DNA of 42,548 nt from positions 1 to 42,548 of the forward strand of contig CAYGPH010000005.1 of the NCBI GenBank assembly GCA_964351815.1. Reading direction: 5' to 3'. Both the position numbers and the translations under genes were made by a program. Positions 21,749 to 36,249 of this stretch are shown here, one piece after another; within the stretch, counting starts at the first letter, position 1; the number at the start of each line of letters is the position of its first letter. The notes under the pieces were generated by a model. It searched no databases. It was not told the origin of the DNA and saw only the letters and a list, made by a program, of their open reading frames with translations. The stretch comes from an uncultured Verrucomicrobiales bacterium (lineage in GTDB: Bacteria > Pseudomonadota > Alphaproteobacteria > Paracaedibacterales > CAITNM01).

Positions 21749-22867
21749 TTATTCATCTAAACGTAAAATACTCTCTACAGCATCAGAACAAGGTAATGAA
21801 AGTAAATCGTTTGGAAGCTCTAAAAGGCCACATATTTGCGAAGTATTTACATCGTATGGCCTTAGGGCTAGCTTGTCTAAAAATAGCATAGATCTTTTAT
21901 CAATTTCATCGTGAACTTCACTGATATATTCCAACTTTTGCACAAAGCATGAAAGTAAAGTAAGTTTTGTTCTTGGGGTAAACATTTGATAACATAATAT
22001 TTTATGTGCAAACCTTATAACTTTATGAAATTGCGCAGACGAAAGTTTGAAGAAGGTTTTGTTAAAGTTAGTAACCTCTTCTAATGTAGTTTCTCCAAAA
22101 AAAATGGCACCTATAACACTATCCGGTGATAAACTTGCCCGAGTTGATAGTTGTTTAACTTGTTCTTTAATACGGGAATATTCATTTTTAGAAAAAATAG
22201 AACGCACGTAGATTTCACTTTTGGCATTAGGAACGAAAATACCTTCCAGAAGTTTTTTTTCTTCATCCGTAAAGTGTGGGCTTTCCAAAGGGTCATAATT
22301 CTTTATAAAAACGCAGTCTACAAGTGGTTTTTTTTGTGTACCTTCAACTCTTAAGGAAGCCCGCTTAGCTAACGGTTCCCCAGTAGTAAAATCTGAGGTA
22401 AGGTTTGGGTTAAATTCCGTTGCTTCAAGGGTAGGGGGTGTTCCTTGAATACAACCATCAGGTTGCTGTACCTGAAACTTCCCCTTACTTGGTCCATGAT
22501 GTTCATCAGTCGCTTGCCAAGCGGGTAATTGCTCATCGTCACTATTTATTTGCTGTGCTTGCTGCTGTGATTCATCCCATTCATCTATTTCGCGCGGCTG
22601 CGCATCTGTCCATCCAGGTGGTGTTTGAGAACAAGTACTTTCACTAGCACTTCTTTTTGGAGAATGAGCATGAAGGATTTCTGCCGATTCACGCGGTGTC
22701 TGCTGACTCGGTGTCTGTTGAGGCAAGGTAGCTTTTAATTTTAAACTTACACTTGGGCAAACATGCCTTTTATGAAAAACTGAATCTGTTTGTGAAGGAT
22801 CCTGAGATTGATCAGCTGCATTTATGCTACCTAAACATACAACCAAAAGTAGGGAAATTAATTTCAT
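21749..22867 (-). CDS. Hypothetical secreted protein (disordered Q/S/T/P-rich N-half, helical C-domain)
   Basis: Signal peptide MKLISLLLVVCLGSINA. 372-aa ORF, no family recognised. Confidence 0.8.
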   Translation of the reverse strand: MKLISLLLVVCLGSINAADQSQDPSQTDSVFHKRHVCPSVSLKLKATLPQQTPSQQTPRESAEILHAHSPKRSASESTCSQTPPGWTDAQPREIDEWDESQQQAQQINSDDEQLPAWQATDEHHGPSKGKFQVQQPDGCIQGTPPTLEATEFNPNLTSDFTTGEPLAKRASLRVEGTQKKPLVDCVFIKNYDPLESPHFTDEEKKLLEGIFVPNAKSEIYVRSIFSKNEYSRIKEQVKQLSTRASLSPDSVIGAIFFGETTLEEVTNFNKTFFKLSSAQFHKVIRFAHKILCYQMFTPRTKLTLLSCFVQKLEYISEVHDEIDKRSMLFLDKLALRPYDVNTSQICGLLELPNDLLSLPCSDAVESILRLDE

Positions 22868-22994: not shown

Positions 22995-23762
22995 TCAGTG
23001 AAAAGGTTGAGCTAATATAGCATTAATAAGTTCTTCATTAGAAAATTGATCTGTTTTAAGGTGCACTAAAGCTAAAAAGTTATTGGCAGTAAAACTTTCT
23101 TGTTTGGCCAAAATTGTACCAATGCACCTAATTCTTTCCGTATCTAATTGTTTAAGTGAATTGACAAGGCTTGGGAGTATGCATGAAAAGCTTTTGTGTT
23201 TTCTTTCTGGGAATTGTGCAGCAAAAACAGAACAGTAACGATGAATCAAACGAATATCAGCTAATTTAAGGTAGTAAATATAATGATCATCTAGTAATTT
23301 GCGATGGTCAAAATTGTAAAGAAACGTTTTTAAACATACATGTTGTGGTTTTAATTTGAATAGCTTTGCTATGTCCAATATATTGCCTACTACTTCCACT
23401 CTTTCTGCAACAGTGAACATACTTAATATGGACATACTAAAAGATTCTATAGTCGTACGGCCTTTTGGGTTTAGGGCATTAAGCTGATTACAAAGACTTA
23501 TGTTATCTTGAGATAAGTGACCATTTTCAATTTCAAAATAAGCTACTTTAGATGCCAAAAAACCATTAATTTCAATAGGTTCGATTGAAAAGTCTTCCTC
23601 ATCACTAGCAACAGAATTATGTCGGGATTCCAATCGTATTGCAGCTGCCCTAGCCAAAATTTGATGTGGGTTAAAAACATCGTTTGCTGAGTCAAAATTT
23701 TGATTTGTTGCAAACAAGCTTGAAAAAAACATGGTTGCAAGTACAAGGAATAAATAACGCAT
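22995..23762 (-). CDS. Hypothetical secreted protein, probable remote paralog of 21749..22867
   Basis: Signal peptide MRYLFLVLATMFFSSLFA. AAGGA SD upstream. 255 aa. Confidence 0.8.
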   Translation of the reverse strand: MRYLFLVLATMFFSSLFATNQNFDSANDVFNPHQILARAAAIRLESRHNSVASDEEDFSIEPIEINGFLASKVAYFEIENGHLSQDNISLCNQLNALNPKGRTTIESFSMSILSMFTVAERVEVVGNILDIAKLFKLKPQHVCLKTFLYNFDHRKLLDDHYIYYLKLADIRLIHRYCSVFAAQFPERKHKSFSCILPSLVNSLKQLDTERIRCIGTILAKQESFTANNFLALVHLKTDQFSNEELINAILAQPFH

Positions 23763-23893: not shown

Positions 23894-25207
23894 ATGAAAA
23901 ATTGTTTTTACATTATACCAGCAGCACTTCTGTTTACAGGTTGTGAAAGTAATACAATTAACTTAGAGCAAAATCCAAAACAAATTAAAGTTGAACAAAA
24001 CAATAATATGGCTGCCGTTGAACAGGACAGCGAATATTCCAATTCCCATGATGTTGCTGTTTCTTATGGCAATCATGAATCCATTCAAGTAAGAGAAGTT
24101 TTTGAACGCTATGAGTTTTTAAAAGATAATTTTTTTATGCAAAGTAAGGGAATAAAAAACAATGTAAAATCCCTACAGGAATTCTCTGTTGAATACGAAA
24201 ACGTTGTTCACGAATTCGCACAGTTTTTACTTTTAGACGAGTTGCTTAAAACAAAATACGATAAACATAAAAGCTTAAACGCCCAGCACCAAAGGGCAAT
24301 GGACAAAATTTTAAGTTTACTTTATGCAAAGTTTCGCGCCCCGGTTTTGTTTGCAAAGCTTGAAGATATACTGTCACAAATTCAAGCGCAACATGGGGAT
24401 ATTTCACGATTCAGCACATATTCTTACACACAACTTTATATTAAAGCTTTAGAAATTATGCAGCTTAGTATGCTGCTGGAATCAATTAACAATAAAAATA
24501 CTACCTTTTATAATTTTAACGGAGAAGTTTTAACACCTTCAAATTTACGTTTACATTATCCCTTAGAAACAAAAGACAAAAAGGCTAACACCCCACCAAA
24601 GCCTGATACGCGTGTCTTGAAAATATCATTTACAAACTACACAATTAATGACGTGATTCCAGAATACACAAGATCAGCGTCTGCAAATAAAAGAATTGAT
24701 TTATTAACAAACTTTGGTGATAAACTTTTAAGCTTTGCCGTATACAAAATTGTTTTAAACGATGCTGATTCGCATTCATTTAAAAATAAACCTGAAATAA
24801 AGCAATTGTTTCAGGTTAATAAGGCTGTTTCTCAAAAAGCAATTTTACGTCAGCAAATAACGAAGGAACTTTCGTCATCTCATCCCGCGCTTATTGATAA
24901 GCTATCGAACATGGTTATGCATCAGATAAAAACGACACCAAGTGATATCACCAAGCATTTTGAAAACAATAAGAAAACCGCTATTAAAAATCAGGTTGTG
25001 CATTATTTATCAGACATGCGATTATTAGGTGGCCTTCATGCCATGGCAGGGGAAATGAAGATGAAATTATTTAGTCTTCATGGTGAAGAACTTCCTTTAA
25101 ATTTAAAATTTCCAAAAGCCCAAAGTAATTTAGGTATTTTTGTCTATCATTATCTTAAAAATCAAACGGCTATAGATATTCAAAAATCTTTAAATAAATC
25201 TGAATAA
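23894..25207 (+). CDS. Hypothetical lipoprotein, possibly two SurA/PrsA-like helical chaperone units
   Basis: Lipobox LFTGC. Internal repeat (FNGEVLTPSNL / LHGEELPLNL). PrsA-like segments VLNDA..F.NKPEIK and IKTTPSDITKHFENNK. The fold call is tentative. Confidence 0.7.
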   Translation: MKNCFYIIPAALLFTGCESNTINLEQNPKQIKVEQNNNMAAVEQDSEYSNSHDVAVSYGNHESIQVREVFERYEFLKDNFFMQSKGIKNNVKSLQEFSVEYENVVHEFAQFLLLDELLKTKYDKHKSLNAQHQRAMDKILSLLYAKFRAPVLFAKLEDILSQIQAQHGDISRFSTYSYTQLYIKALEIMQLSMLLESINNKNTTFYNFNGEVLTPSNLRLHYPLETKDKKANTPPKPDTRVLKISFTNYTINDVIPEYTRSASANKRIDLLTNFGDKLLSFAVYKIVLNDADSHSFKNKPEIKQLFQVNKAVSQKAILRQQITKELSSSHPALIDKLSNMVMHQIKTTPSDITKHFENNKKTAIKNQVVHYLSDMRLLGGLHAMAGEMKMKLFSLHGEELPLNLKFPKAQSNLGIFVYHYLKNQTAIDIQKSLNKSE

Positions 25208-25219
25208 AAAAATTAATTT

Positions 25220-25714
25220 TCAGGTGATTTTTTCAATAATTTCTGGTGATACCTTTATACGGGTTTGCCTACCCATGAATTCAATCAGTAATTCTACCCG
25301 CTGTTGATCCGTATACTTTTCAAATATGGCAGAATAATCTTGAAAAACGCCATTCGTAAGACGAACTTTTTCTCCATAAAAAAACTCCAGCGCTTTTAAG
25401 GGTACGAAACCATTAGGGTTTTCTTGTTCTTGCAAAGCCATTACGATGTCATCCGATATGCTTGCAGGCTTTGTTAACGAATGCATTAAAAGCTGCTGTA
25501 CACCCCGTGTTCCACTTAAGGGGCGCCATCCTGAACCTATGCTTTCTTGCACAAAAAGGTAACGCGGAAAAAGTGGACGGGTCACTTCTTGCTGCTTTCG
25601 GGCATGGCGTATTTTTTTTAAAAACTTTGGACAATAAACTTTCCAACCTTGCTGTTGCAATTGTTGCAAGGCATATTCTTCCTTGTTTATTTGAGTATAA
25701 ACCACATACCACAT
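25220..25714 (-). CDS. NusG-paralog antiterminator (RfaH/UpxY-like)
   Basis: NGN domain WYVVYT...E..A...L, PLFPRYLFV, TRGV. KOW domain GEKVRLTNGVF...IF, RVELLIEFMGR. Confidence 0.88.
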   Translation of the reverse strand: MWYVVYTQINKEEYALQQLQQQGWKVYCPKFLKKIRHARKQQEVTRPLFPRYLFVQESIGSGWRPLSGTRGVQQLLMHSLTKPASISDDIVMALQEQENPNGFVPLKALEFFYGEKVRLTNGVFQDYSAIFEKYTDQQRVELLIEFMGRQTRIKVSPEIIEKIT

Positions 25715-25718
25715 AAAC

Positions 25719-26978
25719 TTAGCCAGCTTTTAGCAAATTTTCAAAGCTTTCATAACTAGGGACCTGCGCTAGATTTCCAAGGGTTGTTAGTGTAGGCTTT
25801 TCCATTAGGGTTTTTGTGCAAATACTGTGCAGGCGTTGCAAATTAACCTGCTCAATTTTTGATAAAATATCTTCCATAGAAATAGGCTTTTTATAAAATG
25901 CCATTTGTCTTGCCAAACGCTCTGCCCTGTTTGCCGTACTTTCAAGACCCATTAACAAACCTGCTTGCATTTGGTTTTTAACCCGCTGTAATTCCTCTGG
26001 TGTTATACTGTTGCAAGCTTTTTTAAATTCATCGGCCACAACGGGGATAAGTTCTCCTACTTTTTCTGGGCTCGTTCCCGCATAAACACTTAACAAACCA
26101 CCGTCTGAAAAACTGTATTGATCTGCTGAAATTGTATAAACTAAGCCGCGCTTTTCACGAATTTCTTGGAACAAGCGTGATGACATGCCGCCGCCCATAA
26201 TACTGGCTAAAACCAAATAATCATAATAATAATCATCAAAAAAACCAACCGTTGGAAAACCCATAACAACATGAATTTGTTCAAGATCTTTTTGTTTACG
26301 ATAATCCCCACCTTGATATGAAGCGGTTAATGGCGTTTGATTGCCTTTATCTGTAACTTTTGTAAAGTACTTTTCTGCTAGTTTGCATAGTTCATCATGA
26401 TCAACATTGCCAGAGGCACAAAGAACCATATTATGTACCCCATAGTGACGTTCCAAATAGGATTTTACTTGCTCTGCCTTAAGGTTTTCAATAATTTTCT
26501 TACTGCCTAAAATAGGCCAACCCATAGGATGATCCCCATATGCGGTTTCTTGAAAATAATCAAAAACCACATCGTCTGGTGTGTCGTTTGATCTGCCAAT
26601 TTCTTGAATCACAACCCCTTGTTCCCGCGAAAATTCAGCTTCATCAAAAGAAGAATTTTGTAAAATGTCACTAATAATATCTACACCTAAGGCAACATCT
26701 TTTTTCAACAATCGAACGTAATAAGCTGTCATTTCACGTGATGTATAGGCATTCATATAGCCACCCACATCTTCTATGACTTTCGAAATATCTAAAGCAC
26801 TGCGGTTTGTGGTACCCTTAAAGGCCATGTGCTCTAACATATGTGCAATACCGTTCTCAGCTTTTGTTTCATGGCGAGCACCAATATTAAGCCAAACACC
26901 TAGGGCAACGGTTTCCACATGTTCGAAACTATCGGAAGCTACAGTTAAGCCATTTGGTAGAGTTGTTGTTTGAATCAT
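25719..26978 (-). CDS. M16 family zinc peptidase (bacterial MPP-like)
   Basis: Inverted zinc motif HMLEH, NAYTSRE, GGGMSSRLFQEIREKRGLVY. Confidence 0.96.
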   Translation of the reverse strand: MIQTTTLPNGLTVASDSFEHVETVALGVWLNIGARHETKAENGIAHMLEHMAFKGTTNRSALDISKVIEDVGGYMNAYTSREMTAYYVRLLKKDVALGVDIISDILQNSSFDEAEFSREQGVVIQEIGRSNDTPDDVVFDYFQETAYGDHPMGWPILGSKKIIENLKAEQVKSYLERHYGVHNMVLCASGNVDHDELCKLAEKYFTKVTDKGNQTPLTASYQGGDYRKQKDLEQIHVVMGFPTVGFFDDYYYDYLVLASIMGGGMSSRLFQEIREKRGLVYTISADQYSFSDGGLLSVYAGTSPEKVGELIPVVADEFKKACNSITPEELQRVKNQMQAGLLMGLESTANRAERLARQMAFYKKPISMEDILSKIEQVNLQRLHSICTKTLMEKPTLTTLGNLAQVPSYESFENLLKAG

Positions 26979-27150: not shown

Positions 27151-28479
27151 TTAATCTACCCTAATTTTGTTTGTGGAGGATGAAAAATCTAACAGTAGAG
27201 GAAGGCTGAACAGACAACTTAATAGACTATAATAAGTGTATCTAGCCTCTGCTGCCATGGAAAAAATTAATAGGCTAAATGCGATAATTAAGCCACTTAA
27301 ATTCATATAAAAAATGTTCCATTGATTTTGTGCTAGCGGTGTTTTTTTTAAAATTTTTCTTAAGTAAAAAAGGGCGATTAAAACTTGAATTATAAAATAC
27401 AGTTTGTAGCTGGTAAATAAATTGAGTAATCGAACTAAATGGTATTTTTCAAGAACACTGTAAAACCATATATAATCATAGGGCATAGGGTTGCTGATAT
27501 CTTTTGGGTTACGATAAAGGGTAAGTTCTAGTTGGTGAGCAAACAACCGCCAGCGATGGCTAAGGTATGCAACTGGATGCTCTATAATCGCCTTACGCCA
27601 GCTTTGCATCAATAGATTGCTGTGGCTTGTATTTTTTTGCAAAGGTGAATCATTGCTAAATGCAAGTTCATCTACACGTTTGGGATTAAAGTTTTTCTGA
27701 AGTCGTTCTATAGAATAGTTGGCCTTTTTAAAGGGTGCTGGAATTATGTCCTGCTGAACTAATAAACTCATGGCTGCAAGGTCATATAGCTTTACATATT
27801 GCCATGCTTGTGATGGTTTTGAGGTCATCTGGTTGAATTTTTCCACGGAAAAAAGTAGGGCTACACTAAAAAAAACACCTACTAATAGCCTGACTAACAG
27901 GTACCTTTTTATATGAATGTGTGACCACCATAGTATAATAACAGGTGCTATAAACATAGCTTGGTACTTAACGGCGGTTCCATAAAACAGTATTGATAAA
28001 GCGAAAATATTGAGCAATGTTTTTTGCACATTTGACAAAACATTTTGGTTGAAACTTAGAAAAAACAAGTATCCGCAAACATAAAGGTAACTGTTAGCAA
28101 AATTTATATCTTTTAAAATAAAAGCCTGGTATCCCAATGCCATAGGGCTTAGCGCTAAAATTACAACAAATAACTTTTGCCAGTTTTTTTTAAAACTATG
28201 GCAAAACCAAAATACTGCAGCAGCATAAAGCATAAGTTGCCACAAAAGCATGACACTATAATGATGGTAAATTTTATAAAGTAATCGCCATAGCCAAGCC
28301 ATAATAGGTGGGTGATGATCACAAAAAATGCCACCATTCAAGGATTGCTGCAGCTGATTTATGCTATCTGAACGCAAAATGCCAGGCCAAAATATTACTG
28401 CTAAAGCAAAAAAGAGCAACCAAGGTAAGAAGAACCAAAGTGTTTTGTGTGTTTTCAACAAGATAAACAAAGTATTCAA
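27151..28479 (-). CDS. Polytopic membrane protein, putative GT-C-fold glycosyltransferase (DUF6020-like)
   Basis: First loop WPG...DS..Q.........DHHPP.MA.LWR, LKD motif, large periplasmic loop, late 'EARY' motif, about 10 TM segments. Confidence 0.65.
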   Translation of the reverse strand: MNTLFILLKTHKTLWFFLPWLLFFALAVIFWPGILRSDSINQLQQSLNGGIFCDHHPPIMAWLWRLLYKIYHHYSVMLLWQLMLYAAAVFWFCHSFKKNWQKLFVVILALSPMALGYQAFILKDINFANSYLYVCGYLFFLSFNQNVLSNVQKTLLNIFALSILFYGTAVKYQAMFIAPVIILWWSHIHIKRYLLVRLLVGVFFSVALLFSVEKFNQMTSKPSQAWQYVKLYDLAAMSLLVQQDIIPAPFKKANYSIERLQKNFNPKRVDELAFSNDSPLQKNTSHSNLLMQSWRKAIIEHPVAYLSHRWRLFAHQLELTLYRNPKDISNPMPYDYIWFYSVLEKYHLVRLLNLFTSYKLYFIIQVLIALFYLRKILKKTPLAQNQWNIFYMNLSGLIIAFSLLIFSMAAEARYTYYSLLSCLFSLPLLLDFSSSTNKIRVD

Positions 28480-28603
28480 GGGTTTTATTAAAATGTATTT
28501 TAGTATAACCGAAGCACTAGGGTTTGAGTACGGCGTTGTCTGTATTTTATATAATCATCAACTTGTGGGTACAGAGTTTACTAATCTCTTAATAGTTATG
28601 AGC

Positions 28604-28828
28604 TCATGATACTGATTCACTCTTATCTTTTGTTGTAGGCACATCAATTGTTTTAGGCACACATTTTCCATTTTTCCATTCGCATTGTGATATTCTCTGT
28701 TTGACTAAAGCAAGATCACATACCTTACTAGATGTTGCTCTTCCACAATCCGAATCTTTGCCCCAACAAGTGTTTCCAGCAATTAAGAAAAGGCCAAGGG
28801 TGGTTGTTTTAAGTATTTTTACTAACAT
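28604..28828 (-). CDS. Small secreted Cys-rich protein (74 aa)
   Basis: Signal-like N-terminus. Mature region C-x8-C-x11-C-x-W-x4-C. AGAG SD-like upstream. Confidence 0.65.
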   Translation of the reverse strand: MLVKILKTTTLGLFLIAGNTCWGKDSDCGRATSSKVCDLALVKQRISQCEWKNGKCVPKTIDVPTTKDKSESVS

Positions 28829-29260
28829 AAACTTTGTCTCTTTATAGTTTTTCTATGTAGTCTGGAAATAAGTTTTTTTCATTATAAAAGGTTAAAGCCA
28901 CAAAGAATAAATAATTGATTTTGCAAAAAAGAATGTTTTTGAGAGCTTGGTAAAATTAGCACTATCTGCCTAAAATATATGAGCTTAAATACCTTCATGA
29001 TTCATGTTTTTTTAAACTTCAAGGTTAGATTGGTAATCAACAAGGAATGGGATAATAAGCACCTTTGCTGGGGAATTTTCCTATTAGGTACCTTTTTAGG
29101 GTTTATAGCTGATGATGATATTATCTAAGACACATCTTTTGGCTTTGGGCAAAAATTCGATGATTCTATCTTAACTTTTGTATTCCTATGGGCAAATAAA
29201 GAATTTGTTAACCTTTTTTCTATAAATTTAAAAAAAACTGTAGAATTTGGATTTTCTTTC

Positions 29261-30358
29261 ATGCGTTATCTTTTTTTGTTTGCTTTAATGAATGCACTTC
29301 ATATTCATGCATTTGGTTTGGGTTTGAAAAGTTTCAACAGCATGTACCACTATGAATGCAGCGGTAAAAATGTTGATTCTGTTTTAAGCACTATAGAAGA
29401 ATACGATAATTTGATGCATGGTAAGCAAAATTCTAGGCTTATGGATCAAAGAACATACAATAAACTTAGAAGTATGCAAGCCGCAAACGATAAAATATCA
29501 AATTGTGTAGGTTCAAAAGGCGCACATAGTGCAAACGAAAGAACAATATCTGCCTACAAGCTATCCAAGGATCACCCCAATTTCACACAATCATTTTATA
29601 ACGCCTGTGATAGTAATGAGCTGTTTTTAAAAACTTTTAGAGCAGATTGCGAAATCGCGTCACAGGCGATGAAATTTGTTTTGAAAGCTCAGCGTCGGCC
29701 TGACGATAACATCCATTCCTTTACTAGTAAGCCCGCTAAAGTAGTAGCAAAAGAAGATAATAATAAACCAGAAAACTCAGCAGCACCTCAACGTGCAAAA
29801 CCACCAATGCCTAATGCACCAGAAATGCCTAATACACCGCCAATGTATAACGGCCAGGGTAACTTCTATCCTCAATACGAGCAGCAACAGCCGCCAATGT
29901 ATGCCAATGAACCTTATCCAAATCAAGCTCCACCTATGTACTACTCGAATACACCACCTATGTACTACCAACAGCAAGTCAATCCTGGTCAACAACAGTT
30001 TGAGCAACCAATGTCTATGCCAGAACCAGTCCCGCCATACGATGCGCAATCTGAATACAATTCAAATGCGCAAAAACCTATGGTTCAGTACTACCCTATG
30101 CCTATGCAGCAACCGATGATGAGTTATTATGGGCAGCCTATGATGATGCCACAGCAAGGTCAAGAATCATTGGAAATGCAGCAGCCAATGCAATCTAAAA
30201 ACATGCAACAGATGATGCAGCAACCTATGATGGGGTACTATGGTCAACCCATGTACTATCCACAACAACCTATGGGATATGGTCAGCCAATGATGTTTAA
30301 TAATCAAGCAACAAATGGTTCAAACGATGATTATATGGGTTATGTGCCTGCACAGTAA
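29261..30358 (+). CDS. Secreted protein with 4-Cys N-domain and Q/P/M/Y-rich low-complexity tail with 4 PPxY motifs
   Basis: Signal peptide MRYLFLFALMNALHIHA. The repeats are conserved as protein in this frame, with synonymous variation. Confidence 0.85.
   Translation: MRYLFLFALMNALHIHAFGLGLKSFNSMYHYECSGKNVDSVLSTIEEYDNLMHGKQNSRLMDQRTYNKLRSMQAANDKISNCVGSKGAHSANERTISAYKLSKDHPNFTQSFYNACDSNELFLKTFRADCEIASQAMKFVLKAQRRPDDNIHSFTSKPAKVVAKEDNNKPENSAAPQRAKPPMPNAPEMPNTPPMYNGQGNFYPQYEQQQPPMYANEPYPNQAPPMYYSNTPPMYYQQQVNPGQQQFEQPMSMPEPVPPYDAQSEYNSNAQKPMVQYYPMPMQQPMMSYYGQPMMMPQQGQESLEMQQPMQSKNMQQMMQQPMMGYYGQPMYYPQQPMGYGQPMMFNNQATNGSNDDYMGYVPAQ
29801..30297 (+). repeat. Degenerate coding repeats: PPMY x4 and QQPMM[SG]YYGQPM units
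   Basis: PPMY at 29837, 29891, 29930, 29954. gcagcaacc.atgatg.g.ta.tatgg.ca.cc.atg at about 30106 and 30217, plus a shorter copy near 30265. Confidence 0.8.
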
Positions 30359-30556
30359 TGGTATCAATTGAACCTAAACTTTATTCAACCCTAGAACCTT
30401 TGCTGTGAATGGACTTAACCACTATGGATTGTCTTAAAAAAATAAATTCTAAGGCCTTCCATAGGTCTTAAGCCAGGTAACTCGTTCAATTCAGTATCAC
30501 TAGATTTCAGCAGAGAAATCCGTTATTTTAGGCTAGAATTTAAAAATATAAAACCT

Positions 30557-33136
30557 ATGCAACCGCAACGGTTAAGCGATATTCGTAGTACTTTTCTTAA
30601 CTATTTTCAAAAACATAATCACTCCATTGTGCCATCCGCGCCATTAGTCCCAGATGATCCCTCATTAATGTTTGTAAATGCGGGAATGGTACCTTTTAAA
30701 GATATTTTTACGGGTAAAGCAACACCTGATTATACTAAGGCCACGTCAGCACAGAAATGTCTAAGGGCCGGTGGCAAGCATAATGATCTGGATAATGTGG
30801 GTTATACCTCTCGGCACCATACTTTTTTTGAAATGTTAGGTAACTTTTCTTTTGGCGACTATTTTAAGGAAGAAGCCATTGTTTTTGCATGGGATATAAT
30901 AACAAAGGTGTTTGAAATTTCAAAAGATAAACTATTAATTACTGTGCATTCAAGTGACCAAGAAGCTCGTGATATTTGGCGCAAGGTAACAGGTTTTGGA
31001 AATTCAAAGATTATTACCATAGATGGGCTTGATAATTTTTGGAGTATGGGTGATGTAGGGCCGTGTGGACCATGCACAGAAATCTTTTATGATCACGGAC
31101 CCAATGTGGTCGGAGGACCTCCAGGATCAAGCCAGGAGGATGGCGATAGGTATATAGAGATATGGAATCTTGTTTTTATGCAATACGATAGCCTAGCAAG
31201 TGGAGAAAAAATTCTGTTGCCTAAACCATGTGTCGATACGGGTATGGGCTTAGAACGTATGGCTGCAGTTTTACAAGGTGTTCAAAGCAATTTTCAAATT
31301 GATCTTTTTCAACAGCTTATTAAAGGATCTATAGATATTGCTGGTAACCCAGATCATCTGCAATCACACCAAGTGATAGCTGATCATTTAAGGGCTACAG
31401 CCTTTTTAATAGCAGATGGCGTTATGCCAAGTAATGAGGGGCGGGGTTATGTTTTACGACGTATCATGCGCAGAGCGATGCGCCACAATTACCTTATGGG
31501 ACAAAAAAAACCATCCATATACCGCCTCTTACCGATATTAAATGATCTTATGGGTAACGCTTACCCTGAGCTTAATCGTGCAAACTTACTCATTAGTGAA
31601 ACCTTACGTAATGAAGAGGATAAATTTCTTGAAACCTTAGGGCGAGGTATGGCTGTTCTTGATGATGAAATTCAAAAAGTAAATAGTAAATGCTTAAGTG
31701 GTGAAGTCGCCTTTAAATTATACGACACCTATGGTTTTCCCTTAGATCTTACGGAAGATGTTTTGCGCCAACACAAAATAAAAGTAGATCACGAAGGCTT
31801 TGATCGTGCTATGCAACACCAAAAACAACTTGCAAAGGCAAGTTGGTCTGGCTCTGGCGATGTTCAAGACAGTAAAGAATGGTTTACTTTAGCTTCAGAT
31901 TTAAAACCAACAGATTTTTGTGGATACGAAGAACTAGAGTTAAAAACAAAGATTTTAGGGATAATTAGTGAAAATCATATTGTAGGCAGTATCAGTAATG
32001 GTGATGCTTGGATTGTGTTAGAAAAAACGCCATTCTATGCGGAAGCTGGCGGCCAAGTTAGCGATAAGGGTGAGCTTACAATAAATGGCAGCAAATACGC
32101 TGTGCTTGACTGCCAACGTTTTGCAAACAGCTTAGTAGCCCACAAAATTGTAGTAGGTGCAAATGAAATCAAGCTGAACGATTGTGTTGTAGCGACAGTA
32201 AATAAGGAGCTTAGGGCAAAAATTGCAGCTAACCACTCGGCAACCCACCTTTTGCATGGTGCATTACGCAGGGTTTTAGGCGACCATGTTGTGCAAAAAG
32301 GTTCGTTGGTTGATGCAAACAAACTACGTTTTGACTTTACCCACAGTAAAGCTTTAAAGCCGGAAGAAATAAAAGCTGTGATTGATATCGTTAATCAAGA
32401 AATATTAAGTGATCACAAAGTAAATACAGAAATATCAACCCCAGAAAAAGCAATGCAAGCAGGTGTTTTAGGCCTATTTGGTGAAAAATATGGTGACCAA
32501 GTTCGTGTCCTTAGCATAGGTTATTCGCAAGAACTTTGCGGTGGCACCCATGTGAAAAATACTGGAAATATTGGGTTGTTTTATATTACCCAAGAATCAG
32601 GCGTGTCTGCTGGTGTGCGAAGAATAGAAGCTATAACAAATACAGCAATACTGAATTATTTTACAAAATCCTCAGAAAATCTTAATCATGAACTTGAAGT
32701 GCAAAAAAAACAATTAAAACAGGCCTTAAAAGACCTTGATGCCGTTAAAAAAGAAATAGCTATGCACAAAGTAGCAGAGCCCCAAGCAAATGGTAATGAA
32801 AGTAACTTAACTACTTTGGGTGCTTACCCTGCAATTATTCGGCATTTAATAGACGTAAAACCCCAAGAACTTCGCAATATTGCCGAGCAGTTAAAAAAAT
32901 CCCTATCAAGCGGTATTGTTTTGGTTACAACGGTTTTTGAAAATAAGGTAGGTATAGTGGTTGCTATAACAAAAGACTTAAGCCAAAAACTTGATGCTGT
33001 GAAATTAGTAAAAACCGCTGCCATTAGTGTTGGTGGTCAAGGTGGTGGTGGTCGTGCCGACATGGCACAGGCTGGTGGTAACCAACCAGAAAGCGTTTCA
33101 AGTATAGTGCAAGTTTTAAATAATATGCTTTGCTGA
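30557..33136 (+). CDS. alaS: Alanine--tRNA ligase
   Basis: FVNAGM, RHHTFFEMLGNFSFGDYFK, DTGMGLER, editing motifs HSATHLLH and ELCGGTH, C-terminal GGGGRADMAQAGG. Confidence 0.99.
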   Translation: MQPQRLSDIRSTFLNYFQKHNHSIVPSAPLVPDDPSLMFVNAGMVPFKDIFTGKATPDYTKATSAQKCLRAGGKHNDLDNVGYTSRHHTFFEMLGNFSFGDYFKEEAIVFAWDIITKVFEISKDKLLITVHSSDQEARDIWRKVTGFGNSKIITIDGLDNFWSMGDVGPCGPCTEIFYDHGPNVVGGPPGSSQEDGDRYIEIWNLVFMQYDSLASGEKILLPKPCVDTGMGLERMAAVLQGVQSNFQIDLFQQLIKGSIDIAGNPDHLQSHQVIADHLRATAFLIADGVMPSNEGRGYVLRRIMRRAMRHNYLMGQKKPSIYRLLPILNDLMGNAYPELNRANLLISETLRNEEDKFLETLGRGMAVLDDEIQKVNSKCLSGEVAFKLYDTYGFPLDLTEDVLRQHKIKVDHEGFDRAMQHQKQLAKASWSGSGDVQDSKEWFTLASDLKPTDFCGYEELELKTKILGIISENHIVGSISNGDAWIVLEKTPFYAEAGGQVSDKGELTINGSKYAVLDCQRFANSLVAHKIVVGANEIKLNDCVVATVNKELRAKIAANHSATHLLHGALRRVLGDHVVQKGSLVDANKLRFDFTHSKALKPEEIKAVIDIVNQEILSDHKVNTEISTPEKAMQAGVLGLFGEKYGDQVRVLSIGYSQELCGGTHVKNTGNIGLFYITQESGVSAGVRRIEAITNTAILNYFTKSSENLNHELEVQKKQLKQALKDLDAVKKEIAMHKVAEPQANGNESNLTTLGAYPAIIRHLIDVKPQELRNIAEQLKKSLSSGIVLVTTVFENKVGIVVAITKDLSQKLDAVKLVKTAAISVGGQGGGGRADMAQAGGNQPESVSSIVQVLNNMLC

Positions 33137-33699: not shown

Positions 33700-36249
33700 A
33701 TGATAAAAAAAATATTTTTAAGCGTCTTCACCCTGTTGGTATTCTTAGTGGTATCATTATTCTTTATTGATTTAAAAAGATATGCACAACCCTATTTACA
33801 TAAGGCCGAAATTCAACTTGATAAAAATATTAAGGTAGGTAGCATTAATTTTTATGTGGTGCCAACGCCGCGCCTTATGGTTAATAACATAGAAATTAAT
33901 GACAAAGATGGCACGCCATTTTTCGTTGTTGATAATATTTCCCTTGTATTAAATTTTTTCGAATCGATAACAGGTAACCCTTGTTTGCAAACCGCTAAAA
34001 TAAATAGTCCAAATATTTACCTAAAAAATTACAAAAATAATAATAATTGGACCATGCCTGAAAACAATGATGAATTTTCAAAGCTAGAAGGCGAAAGCAC
34101 AAAAAGTGAAAAAACTCCGTTGGATAGCTTTTTTCAATATGTGCCGCTTTTAAATATAGAAAATGCCCACATAAGTTATACTGATTATTCTAATCCTAAG
34201 GGCCAAGAGCCCATGAAAATTGACAATCTATATATTAAATTGGTGGCTCCAACCTTAAAAAAACAAGCAGTTTTAGAAATTAAAGCCACAGCGTTTGAAA
34301 ATAGCTTTACGTTTTTAAATCAATTTGATGTTCAAAAAAATTTGGTTTCATTTAAAGGTCAGCTGAATGTAGAGAATGCAAAATTTAAAGTTTCTTGTGA
34401 TGCAGCTACAAGTTTTGAAATGTCTACCCAAGGAATAGAAAGTGTATTGTCATTAAATTCTATAAGTTCCACAGAGGTAATTGAACTCCCAAATAAAAAA
34501 ATTAATCTTAATGATTTGCAGCAAGTATCAGCTGCTGTAATTGGCGACATGAAAAATGGTTTTTTCTTAAAAGATTTAAAAATAATTCACCCCCTGTTCA
34601 GTATTTCAGGAAATGGTTCAATCATAGATAAGGATCTTTCTGTTTTGATGAATTTAAGCGCATCTCTTACGGATGTTGATTTTAAAATAGACAGCCAAGA
34701 TTTAGATAAGATTAAAATTGCCATAATAGGAAAAAATACCCAAGGTTTACAAAAATGGTTTGTGGAAGAGGCCCTATGTAAAGACACCATAAACTTTAGC
34801 GGCCACACAAAGCTAAGTAACCCTAATATATTTTATATTGATACAGTTAATGTTGGAAAAGCAAAGTTTGTAGGAAAAATTTCCATGAACAATGGGGTGA
34901 ATGAAGTTGAATTGCAAACGCCAGAAATAAGATATTGGTTAATGCTGCTAGATATGGAACAAGATATTGTTAAAGATAAAGCTCAAATAAATCTAACCGT
35001 TAATCCGGATGAAAAAATACACATTATTACAACGAATAAATTTTTAAGTTTTATTGCAAATGCTGAGAAAAAATCAGACCAATGGGTAATAAAATTGGCA
35101 CTTCAGAAGCTAGTTTTGGGTGATAATCATTTCAGTGGCAAAGTGGACGTAAGCTATGGCCCAGAAAAAATTTCATCTAATGTGCAGTCTTTAAATGTAA
35201 AAACACCCTTTGTGCCGAATATAAATTTAAATGGCAACGTTGAGGTGAATCTTAAGGGTAAAATACCCTATATTACGGGTAATATTCATGCAGCAAAAAT
35301 ATCTATAGCTGAAATCACACCGAGCAAGGTAGAAAGAAATTACCCTATTCAACAAAACATAAATTCACCGTCTCAGCGTTGGAGTAGGGATCCACTAGAA
35401 CTCCCATTGGATAAGTTTGATATGAATTTTGATTTAAACCTACCAGCTCTTGCTGCAGCAGGTTTAGTTTTCAAAAATTTAAAAAGTAAAATCACATTGA
35501 AAAATGGGGCTTTGAATATGCCCTTTTCTGCCGATTTGTTTGATGGAAAAATTAATGCAGGTTTATATTTAACAAGTAAAAACCTGTTAAATTTTGAAGG
35601 TAACATTAGCAACGTTAATATTCAAAAACACGATATTTTGAAAAAATATTTCTCCTCTGGCTTATTAAATAGCAACGTGGCTTTTTCTTCATACGGTAAA
35701 TCCGAATATGAAATTATTAAAAATTTAAAGGGATCTGCAAAAGCTGAAGTTGTAAACGGCGTAATGATGGGCTTTTCATTGCCATTAATTGTGAATATGA
35801 TTCAAAATCCTAAAACAATTGTTGACGGCAGTGCAATTGGCCAAGCGTTTGGTCAATCTGCAAGTTCAAGGTTTGAAAAACTGCAAAGTGTTTTCCAATT
35901 AAACAATGGTCAGATGCAAACAAGCAATACGATTTTACAAATGGAAAACGCCCAGGTAAGCATTACTGGAGTTGCAGATATCCTTGGCTGGAAATCAGAT
36001 TTTAATGCCCAGGTAAAAGTTTCACCACTTACAGATAAATTACCCCCGGTAATTTTTCAAATCTATGGTCCTTTAGATGATCCAAAATATCGTTTTGATA
36101 AAAATTTCTTTAAAAGCTTTCTCGAAAAGAAAACACAAAATGTGATAAAAAAATCTTTAAGCAAAGCTATAGGTGATATTGTTGGCGATCAGCAAGACGG
36201 GTCGGGAAAAATAAATCCAAAATCTATTTTAAAAGGTATTTTTGGGTAG
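33700..36249 (+). CDS. asmA: AsmA-family lipid-transport-like protein
   Basis: N-terminal TM anchor, long beta-rich body, WSxxPL, C-terminal L.G.A....NG...G, G..D, GPLDDP. Confidence 0.85.
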   Translation: MIKKIFLSVFTLLVFLVVSLFFIDLKRYAQPYLHKAEIQLDKNIKVGSINFYVVPTPRLMVNNIEINDKDGTPFFVVDNISLVLNFFESITGNPCLQTAKINSPNIYLKNYKNNNNWTMPENNDEFSKLEGESTKSEKTPLDSFFQYVPLLNIENAHISYTDYSNPKGQEPMKIDNLYIKLVAPTLKKQAVLEIKATAFENSFTFLNQFDVQKNLVSFKGQLNVENAKFKVSCDAATSFEMSTQGIESVLSLNSISSTEVIELPNKKINLNDLQQVSAAVIGDMKNGFFLKDLKIIHPLFSISGNGSIIDKDLSVLMNLSASLTDVDFKIDSQDLDKIKIAIIGKNTQGLQKWFVEEALCKDTINFSGHTKLSNPNIFYIDTVNVGKAKFVGKISMNNGVNEVELQTPEIRYWLMLLDMEQDIVKDKAQINLTVNPDEKIHIITTNKFLSFIANAEKKSDQWVIKLALQKLVLGDNHFSGKVDVSYGPEKISSNVQSLNVKTPFVPNINLNGNVEVNLKGKIPYITGNIHAAKISIAEITPSKVERNYPIQQNINSPSQRWSRDPLELPLDKFDMNFDLNLPALAAAGLVFKNLKSKITLKNGALNMPFSADLFDGKINAGLYLTSKNLLNFEGNISNVNIQKHDILKKYFSSGLLNSNVAFSSYGKSEYEIIKNLKGSAKAEVVNGVMMGFSLPLIVNMIQNPKTIVDGSAIGQAFGQSASSRFEKLQSVFQLNNGQMQTSNTILQMENAQVSITGVADILGWKSDFNAQVKVSPLTDKLPPVIFQIYGPLDDPKYRFDKNFFKSFLEKKTQNVIKKSLSKAIGDIVGDQQDGSGKINPKSILKGIFG

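Follow-up and report, generated by a model that had tools for sequence, protein, structure and literature searches.

An orphan alphaproteobacterial protein with four clustered PPMY motifs, tentatively read as host-facing

Contig CAYGPH010000005.1 of GenBank assembly GCA_964351815.1 (42,548 nucleotides, analysed over its whole length and called the window below) derives from an uncultured bacterium that is labelled Verrucomicrobiales and placed by GTDB in the alphaproteobacterial order Paracaedibacterales. The present analysis concerns one of its genes, at positions 29261..30358 of the forward strand, which encodes a protein made up of a signal-like N-terminus, a small cysteine-bearing domain and a long disordered tail with four closely spaced copies of the tetrapeptide PPMY. 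We tentatively read this protein as lineage-restricted and host-facing, displaying linear motifs to host WW domains. The reading draws on the architecture of the protein, its motif array, the constraint acting on its repeats, its orphan status and the intracellular type of the genome, each of which was observed directly and is described below.

The mechanism that we infer would begin with export by the Sec system, presumably with cleavage of the signal peptide, and continue with folding of the small helical domain in the periplasm, where two disulfides would probably form. Having presumably passed the outer membrane, the protein would either remain exposed at the cell surface or be set free from it, in a bacterium living inside a protist, and its tail would there present short linear motifs in a multivalent array. 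The four PPMY copies would engage class I WW domains in some host partner, the Nedd4/Rsp5-type ligases being the best-known class of such proteins, and in that number would resemble host multi-PY adaptors. The half of the tail that is marked by QPM and YYG may add weak self-association and, through it, avidity.

The disordered tail and its PPMY array

The tail occupies residues 171-365 (29771..30355, + strand), carries a net charge of -8 and contains neither histidine nor cysteine. The initial annotation had put this low-complexity region at about 190 residues, behind a domain with four cysteines; it measures 195, and the cysteines are placed as described. Proline and glutamine supply 36 residues each (18.5 % apiece), methionine 28 (14.4 %) and tyrosine 22 (11.3 %), which amounts to enrichments of 4.9x, 4.4x, 6x and 3.4x, respectively, over the 540 long open reading frames (ORFs) of the genome. 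Charged residues number 16 of 195, with a longest charge-free stretch of 42 residues, and glutamine and asparagine together make up 52 of the 195 (27 %). Four YP dipeptides, earlier noted as several, and eight QPM tripeptides are present, along with MxM and MM runs. The assignment of disorder rests on the coil that AlphaFold2 predicts throughout residues 171-365, on low values of the predicted local distance difference test (pLDDT) and on the low-complexity composition.

All four PPMY copies lie on the + strand, exactly at the nucleotide positions originally listed for them (29837, 29891, 29930 and 29954) and with the same codons. The first (aa 193-196; 29837..29848) stands in the context NTPPMYNG, and the second (aa 211-214; 29891..29902; QQPPMYAN) is identical to it over 12 nt. 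The third (aa 224-227; 29930..29941; QAPPMYYS) differs from these two at three positions, all synonymous, and the fourth (aa 232-235; 29954..29965; NTPPMYYQ) shares 15 identical nt with the third. The motif is accordingly written in two codon versions, CCGCCAATGTAT and CCACCTATGTAC, each used twice. Every copy matches the canonical PPxY sequence, the x position is methionine throughout, and the whole array is confined to 44 residues. Among 20000 shuffles of the residues of the tail, at least four PPxY arose in 88 (88/20000) and at least four PPMY in none (0/20000). The late-domain motifs P[TS]AP and YPxL were sought by eye in the target sequence and are absent from it.

The description of the tail as prion-like was upheld in part. 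Its glutamine and asparagine content and the paucity of charges agree with that label; its proline content and the uneven spacing of its aromatic residues do not. By the usual criteria for prion-like domains (at least 60 aa, rich in Q/N, with little charge and little proline), a tail with 36 prolines in 195 residues falls outside the class. An even spacing of aromatic "stickers" is not supported, as the coefficient of variation (cv) of the spacing is 1.05 in the tail and 0.88 +/- 0.16 in shuffles, 86 % of which have a cv at or below that observed.

Protein-level constraint on the repeats

Synonymous differences between repeat copies had been taken as a sign of selection at the protein level, and the counts bear this out. 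The tail contains two copies of an 18-aa repeat, copy A (MQQPMMSYYGQPMMMPQQ; 30104..30157, + strand) and copy B (MQQPMMGYYGQPMYYPQQ; 30215..30268, + strand), which are 74 % identical as DNA. Both follow the unit MQQPMM(S/G)YYGQPM..., and thus account for the two occurrences of QQPMMxYYGQPM reported earlier. Across the 18 codons, the proportion of differing synonymous sites (pS) is 0.89 and that of differing non-synonymous sites (pN) 0.16, and the two PPMY codon versions differ at 3/3 synonymous positions and at 0 of about 9.7 non-synonymous sites. The samples, namely the PPMY codons and one 18-codon pair, are tiny, and both point in the same direction. Since pS far exceeds pN and the PPMY versions differ synonymously only, a constraint on the repeats at the protein level is indicated. 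These figures support the view that the copies did not arise by recent duplication of DNA, and that the peptide was kept while its silent sites drifted. Tandem Repeats Finder reported a single array in the target, of 18-nt period and 2.6 copies.

N-terminus and N-domain

Read by eye, the N-terminus has the appearance of a Sec signal, in agreement with the signal peptide proposed originally. The putative peptide covers residues 1-17 (29261..29311, + strand), in which an n-region MR leads into the hydrophobic stretch YLFLFALMNAL and then HIHA; cleavage would follow IHA, with alanine at -1 and isoleucine at -3. The n-region holds a single positive charge, asparagine and histidine occur in or near the h-region, and a lipobox cysteine was not seen by eye in the N-terminus. 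YLFLFALMNAL is the sole hydrophobic segment of the protein, and residues 4-22, with a mean hydropathy of 1.7, are borderline for a signal anchor. This N-terminus resembles a Sec signal, with an uncleaved signal anchor as a possible alternative.

The N-domain (aa 18-170; 29312..29770, + strand) is predicted to be all-helical and has a net charge of +5. Its four cysteines, at residues 33, 82, 116 and 130, are the only ones between the signal and the stop codon, the tail having none. Two AlphaFold2 runs, made without an alignment, gave the N-domain 4 to 6 helices and the tail coil, with mean pLDDT of 43.1 and 39.8. At a pLDDT of about 40-43, matches to such models are meaningless, and we have assigned no fold to the domain on that account. 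Two disulfides among the four cysteines are plausible, given that a gene for a DsbA-like thioredoxin-fold protein is present in the genome.

Authenticity of the gene

The ORF at 29261-30358 (+ strand) was recovered exactly as first described. It runs from an ATG start to a TAA stop and is complete, encoding 365 aa. Under the codon usage of the genome the annotated frame scores best (log-likelihood -3.94, versus -4.60 and -4.84 for the other frames), and its synonymous codon choice is that of the genome. An independently assembled contig of a sequencing run, X1, is identical over 28900-30696, with 0 differences and 0 indels. X1, a DNA run, is the sole public run that contains the stretch. It may be the source of this DNA, and the identity therefore speaks for the assembly without adding an independent sample; the public-run index lists no RNA run with the stretch. 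On the strength of the codon usage and of the identical contig, the gene is real and native to this genome. Two ORFs that overlap it in other frames are, in our judgement, by-products of low-complexity DNA.

Upstream lies an AT-rich intergenic region of 432 nt (28829..29260), which separates the target from a divergent 74-aa cysteine-rich ORF. A pattern scan placed one weak promoter-like site there, at 28947-28976 (+ strand); as only 2 such sites were found across 28400-30700 and 8.7 +/- 3.0 in shuffles, it does not count as evidence of a promoter. A terminator scan likewise returned counts at or below the shuffle level, and there is no recognisable Shine-Dalgarno sequence upstream of the ORF. 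Matches to an RfaH ops-like element, allowing up to 2 mismatches to the consensus, numbered 11 where 13.4 were expected, with 0 in 28829-29260, 0 within the target gene and the nearest at 27540 and 31515.

Orphan status

The target is a strict orphan in the databases searched. Neither Pfam (E up to 0.1) nor NCBIfam (E up to 0.001) contains a family that matches it. A word-indexed search of 5.8 billion clustered proteins returned the protein itself only, whether queried as a whole or, at E up to 10, with the tail alone, as did HMMER when run with residues 1-175 over the entire set of 1.84 billion representatives. The six-frame search of its own genome and 40 related genomes matched 0/40 of the latter, phmmer at maximum sensitivity detected no paralogue in its own genome, and the ESM Atlas yielded nothing further for the N-domain or for the whole protein. 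Among PDB sequences the best hit was to TFIIS at E 0.32, which is not meaningful. The sequence upstream of alaS was retrieved from 14 related genomes, and the 13 long enough to be scanned were not syntenic and contained no similar ORF. This isolation is less surprising in view of the sampling: no second member of its genus was included in the genomes searched, and same-family genomes have alaS genes that share only 56-58 % identity with its own.

Organism and lifestyle

The genome comprises 1.44 Mb in 118 contigs at 36.7 % GC and is 100 % complete by marker genes. The best named match to its alaS, at 56 %, close to the values for same-family genomes, is a metagenome-assembled genome labelled Candidatus Finniella inopinata (Holosporales, Candidatus Paracaedibacteraceae), and the Finniella-like placement that we tentatively adopt is inferred from this one gene. 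An obligate intracellular life is well supported. Two full genes for TLC ATP/ADP translocases (G000:C49:2175-3665 and C12:9159-10550) are accompanied by a fragment with internal stops (C104:52-228), whereas 0/14 control genomes contained any. A type VI sheath gene (G000:C29:4630-5526), TolC-type genes and a gene for a patatin-like phospholipase are also present. The translocase genes and the type VI sheath gene, taken with the failure to find VirB4, mark the organism as an energy-parasitic intracellular bacterium. Given the translocases, the type VI sheath gene and the 1.44-Mb genome, a eukaryotic target is biologically possible. WW domains were not found in the genome of the bacterium itself, a weak result in that the control found none anywhere.

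The part of a 2025 review that treats the group (PMC11909080) lists Paracaedibacteraceae, Finniella included, as symbionts of the protist cytoplasm and regards type VI secretion as the path by which effectors are most credibly delivered. Titles in its reference list point to periplasmic proteins of Holospora that are released into the host.

Similar tails elsewhere in the lineage

Two further tails rich in P, Q, M and Y occur in the genome. One belongs to a 576-aa signal-peptide protein, the C14 protein (G000:C14:18397-20124, equal to L097:6398-8125; - strand). The other, of the C10 protein (G000:C10:2-634, equal to L098:2-631; + strand), is C-terminal and comes with at least three tandem repeats of 16 aa (TQPVALNTEAPHSSPS); this protein is cut by the contig end, is encoded just upstream of groEL and has no Pfam match. 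Neither tail contains PPxY or LPxY, which argues that PPxY is not a mere by-product of such a composition. The tails of the target and of the C14 protein can be aligned by blastp without composition correction (E 1.5e-5), an alignment that is compositional.

Orthologues of the C14 protein stand beside valS in two genomes of the same family (L112, G008:C2; L111, G004:C35). They form with it a family of signal-peptide proteins that is divergent from valS and has no name in Pfam or NCBIfam. Across the 3 sequences the helical N-domain is conserved, at 28-29 % identity and with 58 invariant columns; the low-complexity region that follows differs entirely from genome to genome. In G008 it consists of Met/Pro/Gly/Gln repeats, which we take to recall the Pro-Gly-Met tails of eukaryotic SmB, and in G004 of Gly/Asn/Phe repeats followed by PAPA runs. 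Both of these proteins end in Ala/Glu/Gln/Lys helices. The target resembles this family in combining a putative signal peptide, a predicted helical domain and a hypervariable Met/Pro/Gln/Tyr tail. It was rejected as a member, however, as the N-domains are unrelated (hhalign probability 1.2 %). The C14 tail is devoid of PPxY, and the family has orthologues whereas the target has none. In our reading of these sequences, exported proteins with fast-changing Met/Pro/Gln/Tyr tails appear to be a recurring habit of the lineage, in which PPxY arrays would be occasional.

Other PPxY clusters were also observed, in further genomes of the order. Two related signal-peptide proteins (L106, G025:C3; L107, G042:C156) carry PPGY runs and elastin-like repeats, an example being PPGYPPPGYYPPPPNY followed by elastin-like GVGLPGAP repeats. 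A 373-aa signal-peptide protein of the same family (L108, G013:C19) has PPPY, PPLY and PPAY directly after its signal. Pfam gave no match for the PPxY-cluster proteins of G025, G042 and G013.

Weighing the host-facing reading

Several points weigh against exposure of the target to the host. A Sec signal alone delivers a protein to the periplasm and no further. Neither Pfam and NCBIfam nor inspection of the sequence by eye revealed an autotransporter barrel, a lipobox or another outer-membrane device, and where an autotransporter would have a C-terminal beta-barrel or anchor domain, the C-terminal half of the target is low-complexity coil that matches no family. VirB4 was not found in the genome. 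A single secretin and a single GspE/PilB-type ATPase were detected, with best scores of pilus type that do not reach the curated cut-off of any type II or pilus model. The former is lipobox-bearing (G000:C16:24740-25318, - strand; best match MshL-type, below cut-off), and the latter, GspE/PilB/ComGA-like (G000:C90:824-1636, + strand), is on a separate contig.

The motif array calls for similar caution. PPMY, QQPM and QPMM are three 4-mers that each occur four times in the tail, the highest count of any, and given this internal repetitiveness the PPMY copies are not independent events. About 120 aa of the tail are free of PPxY. A pattern of three PPxY at short spacing was found in 4/62 genomes of the order, namely in the target and in the proteins of G025, G042 and G013 described above, and its backwards control in 14/62, from which no enrichment in the order emerges. 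No orthologue with or without PPxY was found in the databases searched. Binding to WW domains of a host would be a prediction from the motif. As for the endosomal sorting complex required for transport (ESCRT), the authors of PMC12707686 state, in a passage on the subject, that binding to it is hard to predict from sequence alone.

The initial annotation had proposed either a recruiter of host ubiquitin ligase and ESCRT machinery or a self-assembling surface protein, an interpretation that finds partial support here. Both proposals are weighed in this section, together with a strictly periplasmic protein, which it had named as a refutation. Confinement to the envelope is nearly as likely as the host-facing reading, although unlikely when taken by itself. 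The protein would be periplasmic, or anchored in the inner membrane by an uncleaved signal; its tail would be a flexible spacer that spans the periplasm or fills space, possibly a Met-rich redox or metal buffer, and no eukaryotic protein would be bound by PPMY. Apart from the Sec-type N-terminus no targeting feature was seen in the target, the borderline hydropathy of that N-terminus would suit a signal anchor, and domains typical of secretion or of the outer membrane were not found with Pfam and NCBIfam. Signal-peptide proteins from genomes of the same family bear comparable Met/Pro/Gln/Gly/Tyr stretches, followed in two of them by the long Ala/Glu/Gln/Lys helices described above, which presumably recall periplasm-spanning proteins such as TolA. 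The methionine content of the tail, with its MxM and MM runs, points the same way. Rickettsia RARP-1 was reportedly once taken for a secreted effector. It is described as periplasmic in part of a preprint (bioRxiv 10.1101/2022.02.23.481736).

A role as metal buffer fits poorly with the few acidic residues of the tail, and no Met-rich metal-binding family was matched. In Met/His-rich metal-binding proteins of the PcoE/SilE/CopB-like type, methionine is combined with histidine or aspartate motifs. By this definition the target does not qualify, having 0 His in its tail and no Pfam or NCBIfam match to such proteins. A plain spacer would leave it unexplained that PPMY was kept exactly through synonymous change, and a tail this rich in tyrosine is, to our knowledge, unusual among proline-rich periplasmic spacers. 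Should the protein nevertheless prove periplasmic, the finding would shrink to an unusual orphan envelope protein.

Considerably less probable is a self-assembling coat or adhesive on the cell surface, in which tyrosine and methionine contacts between the tails would surround the bacterium with a layer, gel-like or elastomeric, or with a condensate. Oxidation of methionine might tune such a coat, and no specific host receptor would be involved. The tail is nearly uncharged, is rich in tyrosine, glutamine, methionine and proline and includes the long charge-free stretch; its repeat units are conserved at the protein level, and three proteins of the genome carry such tails. Against the proposal, high proline disfavours amyloid-type assembly, and the aromatics are unevenly spaced. 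Surface exposure and assembly are both putative. Met-rich low-complexity domains, that of yeast Pbp1 among them, are discussed as redox-sensitive phase-separating modules in a section of PMC8394241. Compared by description with Pbp1 and eukaryotic prion-like domains, the tail of the target is similar in being nearly uncharged, rich in Q, Y and M and built of short repeated units; it differs in its high proline, its uneven aromatics and its exported bacterial setting.

That the gene is young or decaying and serves no specific function, its tail being an expansion of low complexity that the drifting genome of a symbiont has tolerated next to a remnant domain, is very improbable: strict orphan status, the missing Shine-Dalgarno sequence and convincing promoter and the low-confidence structure models would suit it, but a 365-codon frame open at 36.7 % GC, native codon usage, a pN far below pS between repeat copies and a proline enrichment that runs against the AT bias of the genome do not.

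Comparison with known systems

PPxY motifs bind the WW domains of Nedd4/Rsp5 ligases and are used in this way by viruses. Both statements recur in a passage of PMC12707686, and part of PMC12720080 describes host multi-PY adaptors as activators of NEDD4-like ligases, with several PY motifs reported for NDFIP2/WWP2. The target is like viral late domains and Ndfip-type adaptors in presenting canonical PPxY motifs, four of them within a short disordered segment. Unlike the adaptors of Ndfip type, it is bacterial, has a Sec-type signal and is not a membrane adaptor; its x residue is always methionine, and its contact with WW domains is predicted. Full-text literature searches returned no bacterial protein that acts through a canonical PPxY motif or array of its own, which is a statement about those searches and not a claim on all literature.

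Intracellular bacteria are known to mimic short motifs of eukaryotes. The tandem repeat protein (TRP) effectors of Ehrlichia are not known to carry a Sec signal. According to the relevant portion of PMC8112483 they leave the cell by type I secretion. TRP32 and TRP120 are reported to interact with NEDD4L in passages of PMC5768648, PMC8112483 and PMC10028187, and TRP32 does so, as PMC5768648 puts it in one such passage, although it is without a canonical PPxY. The target is comparable in being disordered and repeat-bearing, in coming from an intracellular alphaproteobacterium and in possibly carrying eukaryote-type motifs. It differs in its Sec-type N-terminus, in having degenerate repeats in place of long tandem units and in showing no sequence similarity. 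The combination that defines the TRP type, long near-identical tandem repeats with type I secretion in the absence of a Sec signal, is thus not that of the target; TolC-type genes do exist in the genome.

Salmonella SteD is described, in an excerpt of PMC7342019, as borrowing the host PY adaptor TMEM127. Part of PMC12707686 describes how Wbm0152, a Wolbachia lipoprotein of the outer membrane, disturbs ESCRT in yeast. The target would share the Sec route with Wbm0152 and with the 63-kDa and 89-kDa periplasmic proteins of Holospora, which those parts of PMC12707686 and PMC11909080 report as acting on, or being released into, the host. No homology was detected between these envelope proteins and the target, however, and Wbm0152 is a lipoprotein whereas the target has no lipobox.

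The target belongs to none of the families compared here and, to judge by its motifs, could work like a PY adaptor. As a motif-bearing disordered protein of an intracellular bacterium it is of a kind already known. A bolder proposal, which we regard as a long shot, is that it represents the first bacterial multi-PY adaptor, a Sec-exported protein, exposed on a symbiont in the protist cytoplasm, that would use PPMY to dock onto and switch on host Nedd4/Rsp5-type ligases much as Ndfip-type adaptors do. It would then be one of a lineage-wide set of fast-evolving exported Met/Pro/Gln/Tyr tails imitating the proline-rich sequences to which WW, GYF or SH3 modules of eukaryotes bind. Were this correct, ubiquitination or ESCRT-type membrane remodelling could be redirected at the surface of the symbiont, and the logic of viral late domains and of Ndfip would extend to a bacterial symbiont of protists by way of the Sec envelope route instead of an injection system. 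The hypervariable Met/Pro/Gln/Tyr tails on unrelated exported proteins of Finniella-like genomes may point, in addition, to interface proteins of a class not yet described in Holosporales-type symbionts, the effectors of which are essentially unknown in the account given in part of PMC11909080.

Genomic neighbourhood

The target gene is flanked by alaS on one side and on the other by a series of ORFs that match no family in Pfam or NCBIfam, most of which have signal peptides, a setting that counts in favour of the host-facing reading. This run includes ORFs of 372 aa (21752-22867, - strand) and 255 aa (22998-23762, - strand), a lipoprotein-like ORF of 437 aa (23894-25204, + strand), a polytopic membrane ORF of 442 aa (27151-28479, - strand) and the 74-aa ORF with six cysteines (28604-28828, - strand). 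The target and the 255-aa ORF have the start MRYLFL in common, which we consider a coincidence, with 13/18 of the first nucleotides but only 21/60 nt identical. At 17.5 bits, short of the cut-off of 21.2, and E 0.006, the 74-aa ORF weakly matched the surface antigen domain of Paramecium.

The run is broken by an M16 peptidase gene and an RfaH/NusG paralogue. The latter matches TIGR01955 at 109 bits, below the cut-off of 144.5, and stands directly downstream of the M16-type peptidase gene and of the 442-aa membrane ORF, with which it shares its strand (25220-26978 of the window, - strand). On the other side of the target, downstream of alaS, the window contains a gene for an AsmA-family protein of 849 aa (33700-36249, + strand), followed by those for citrate synthase and aconitase.

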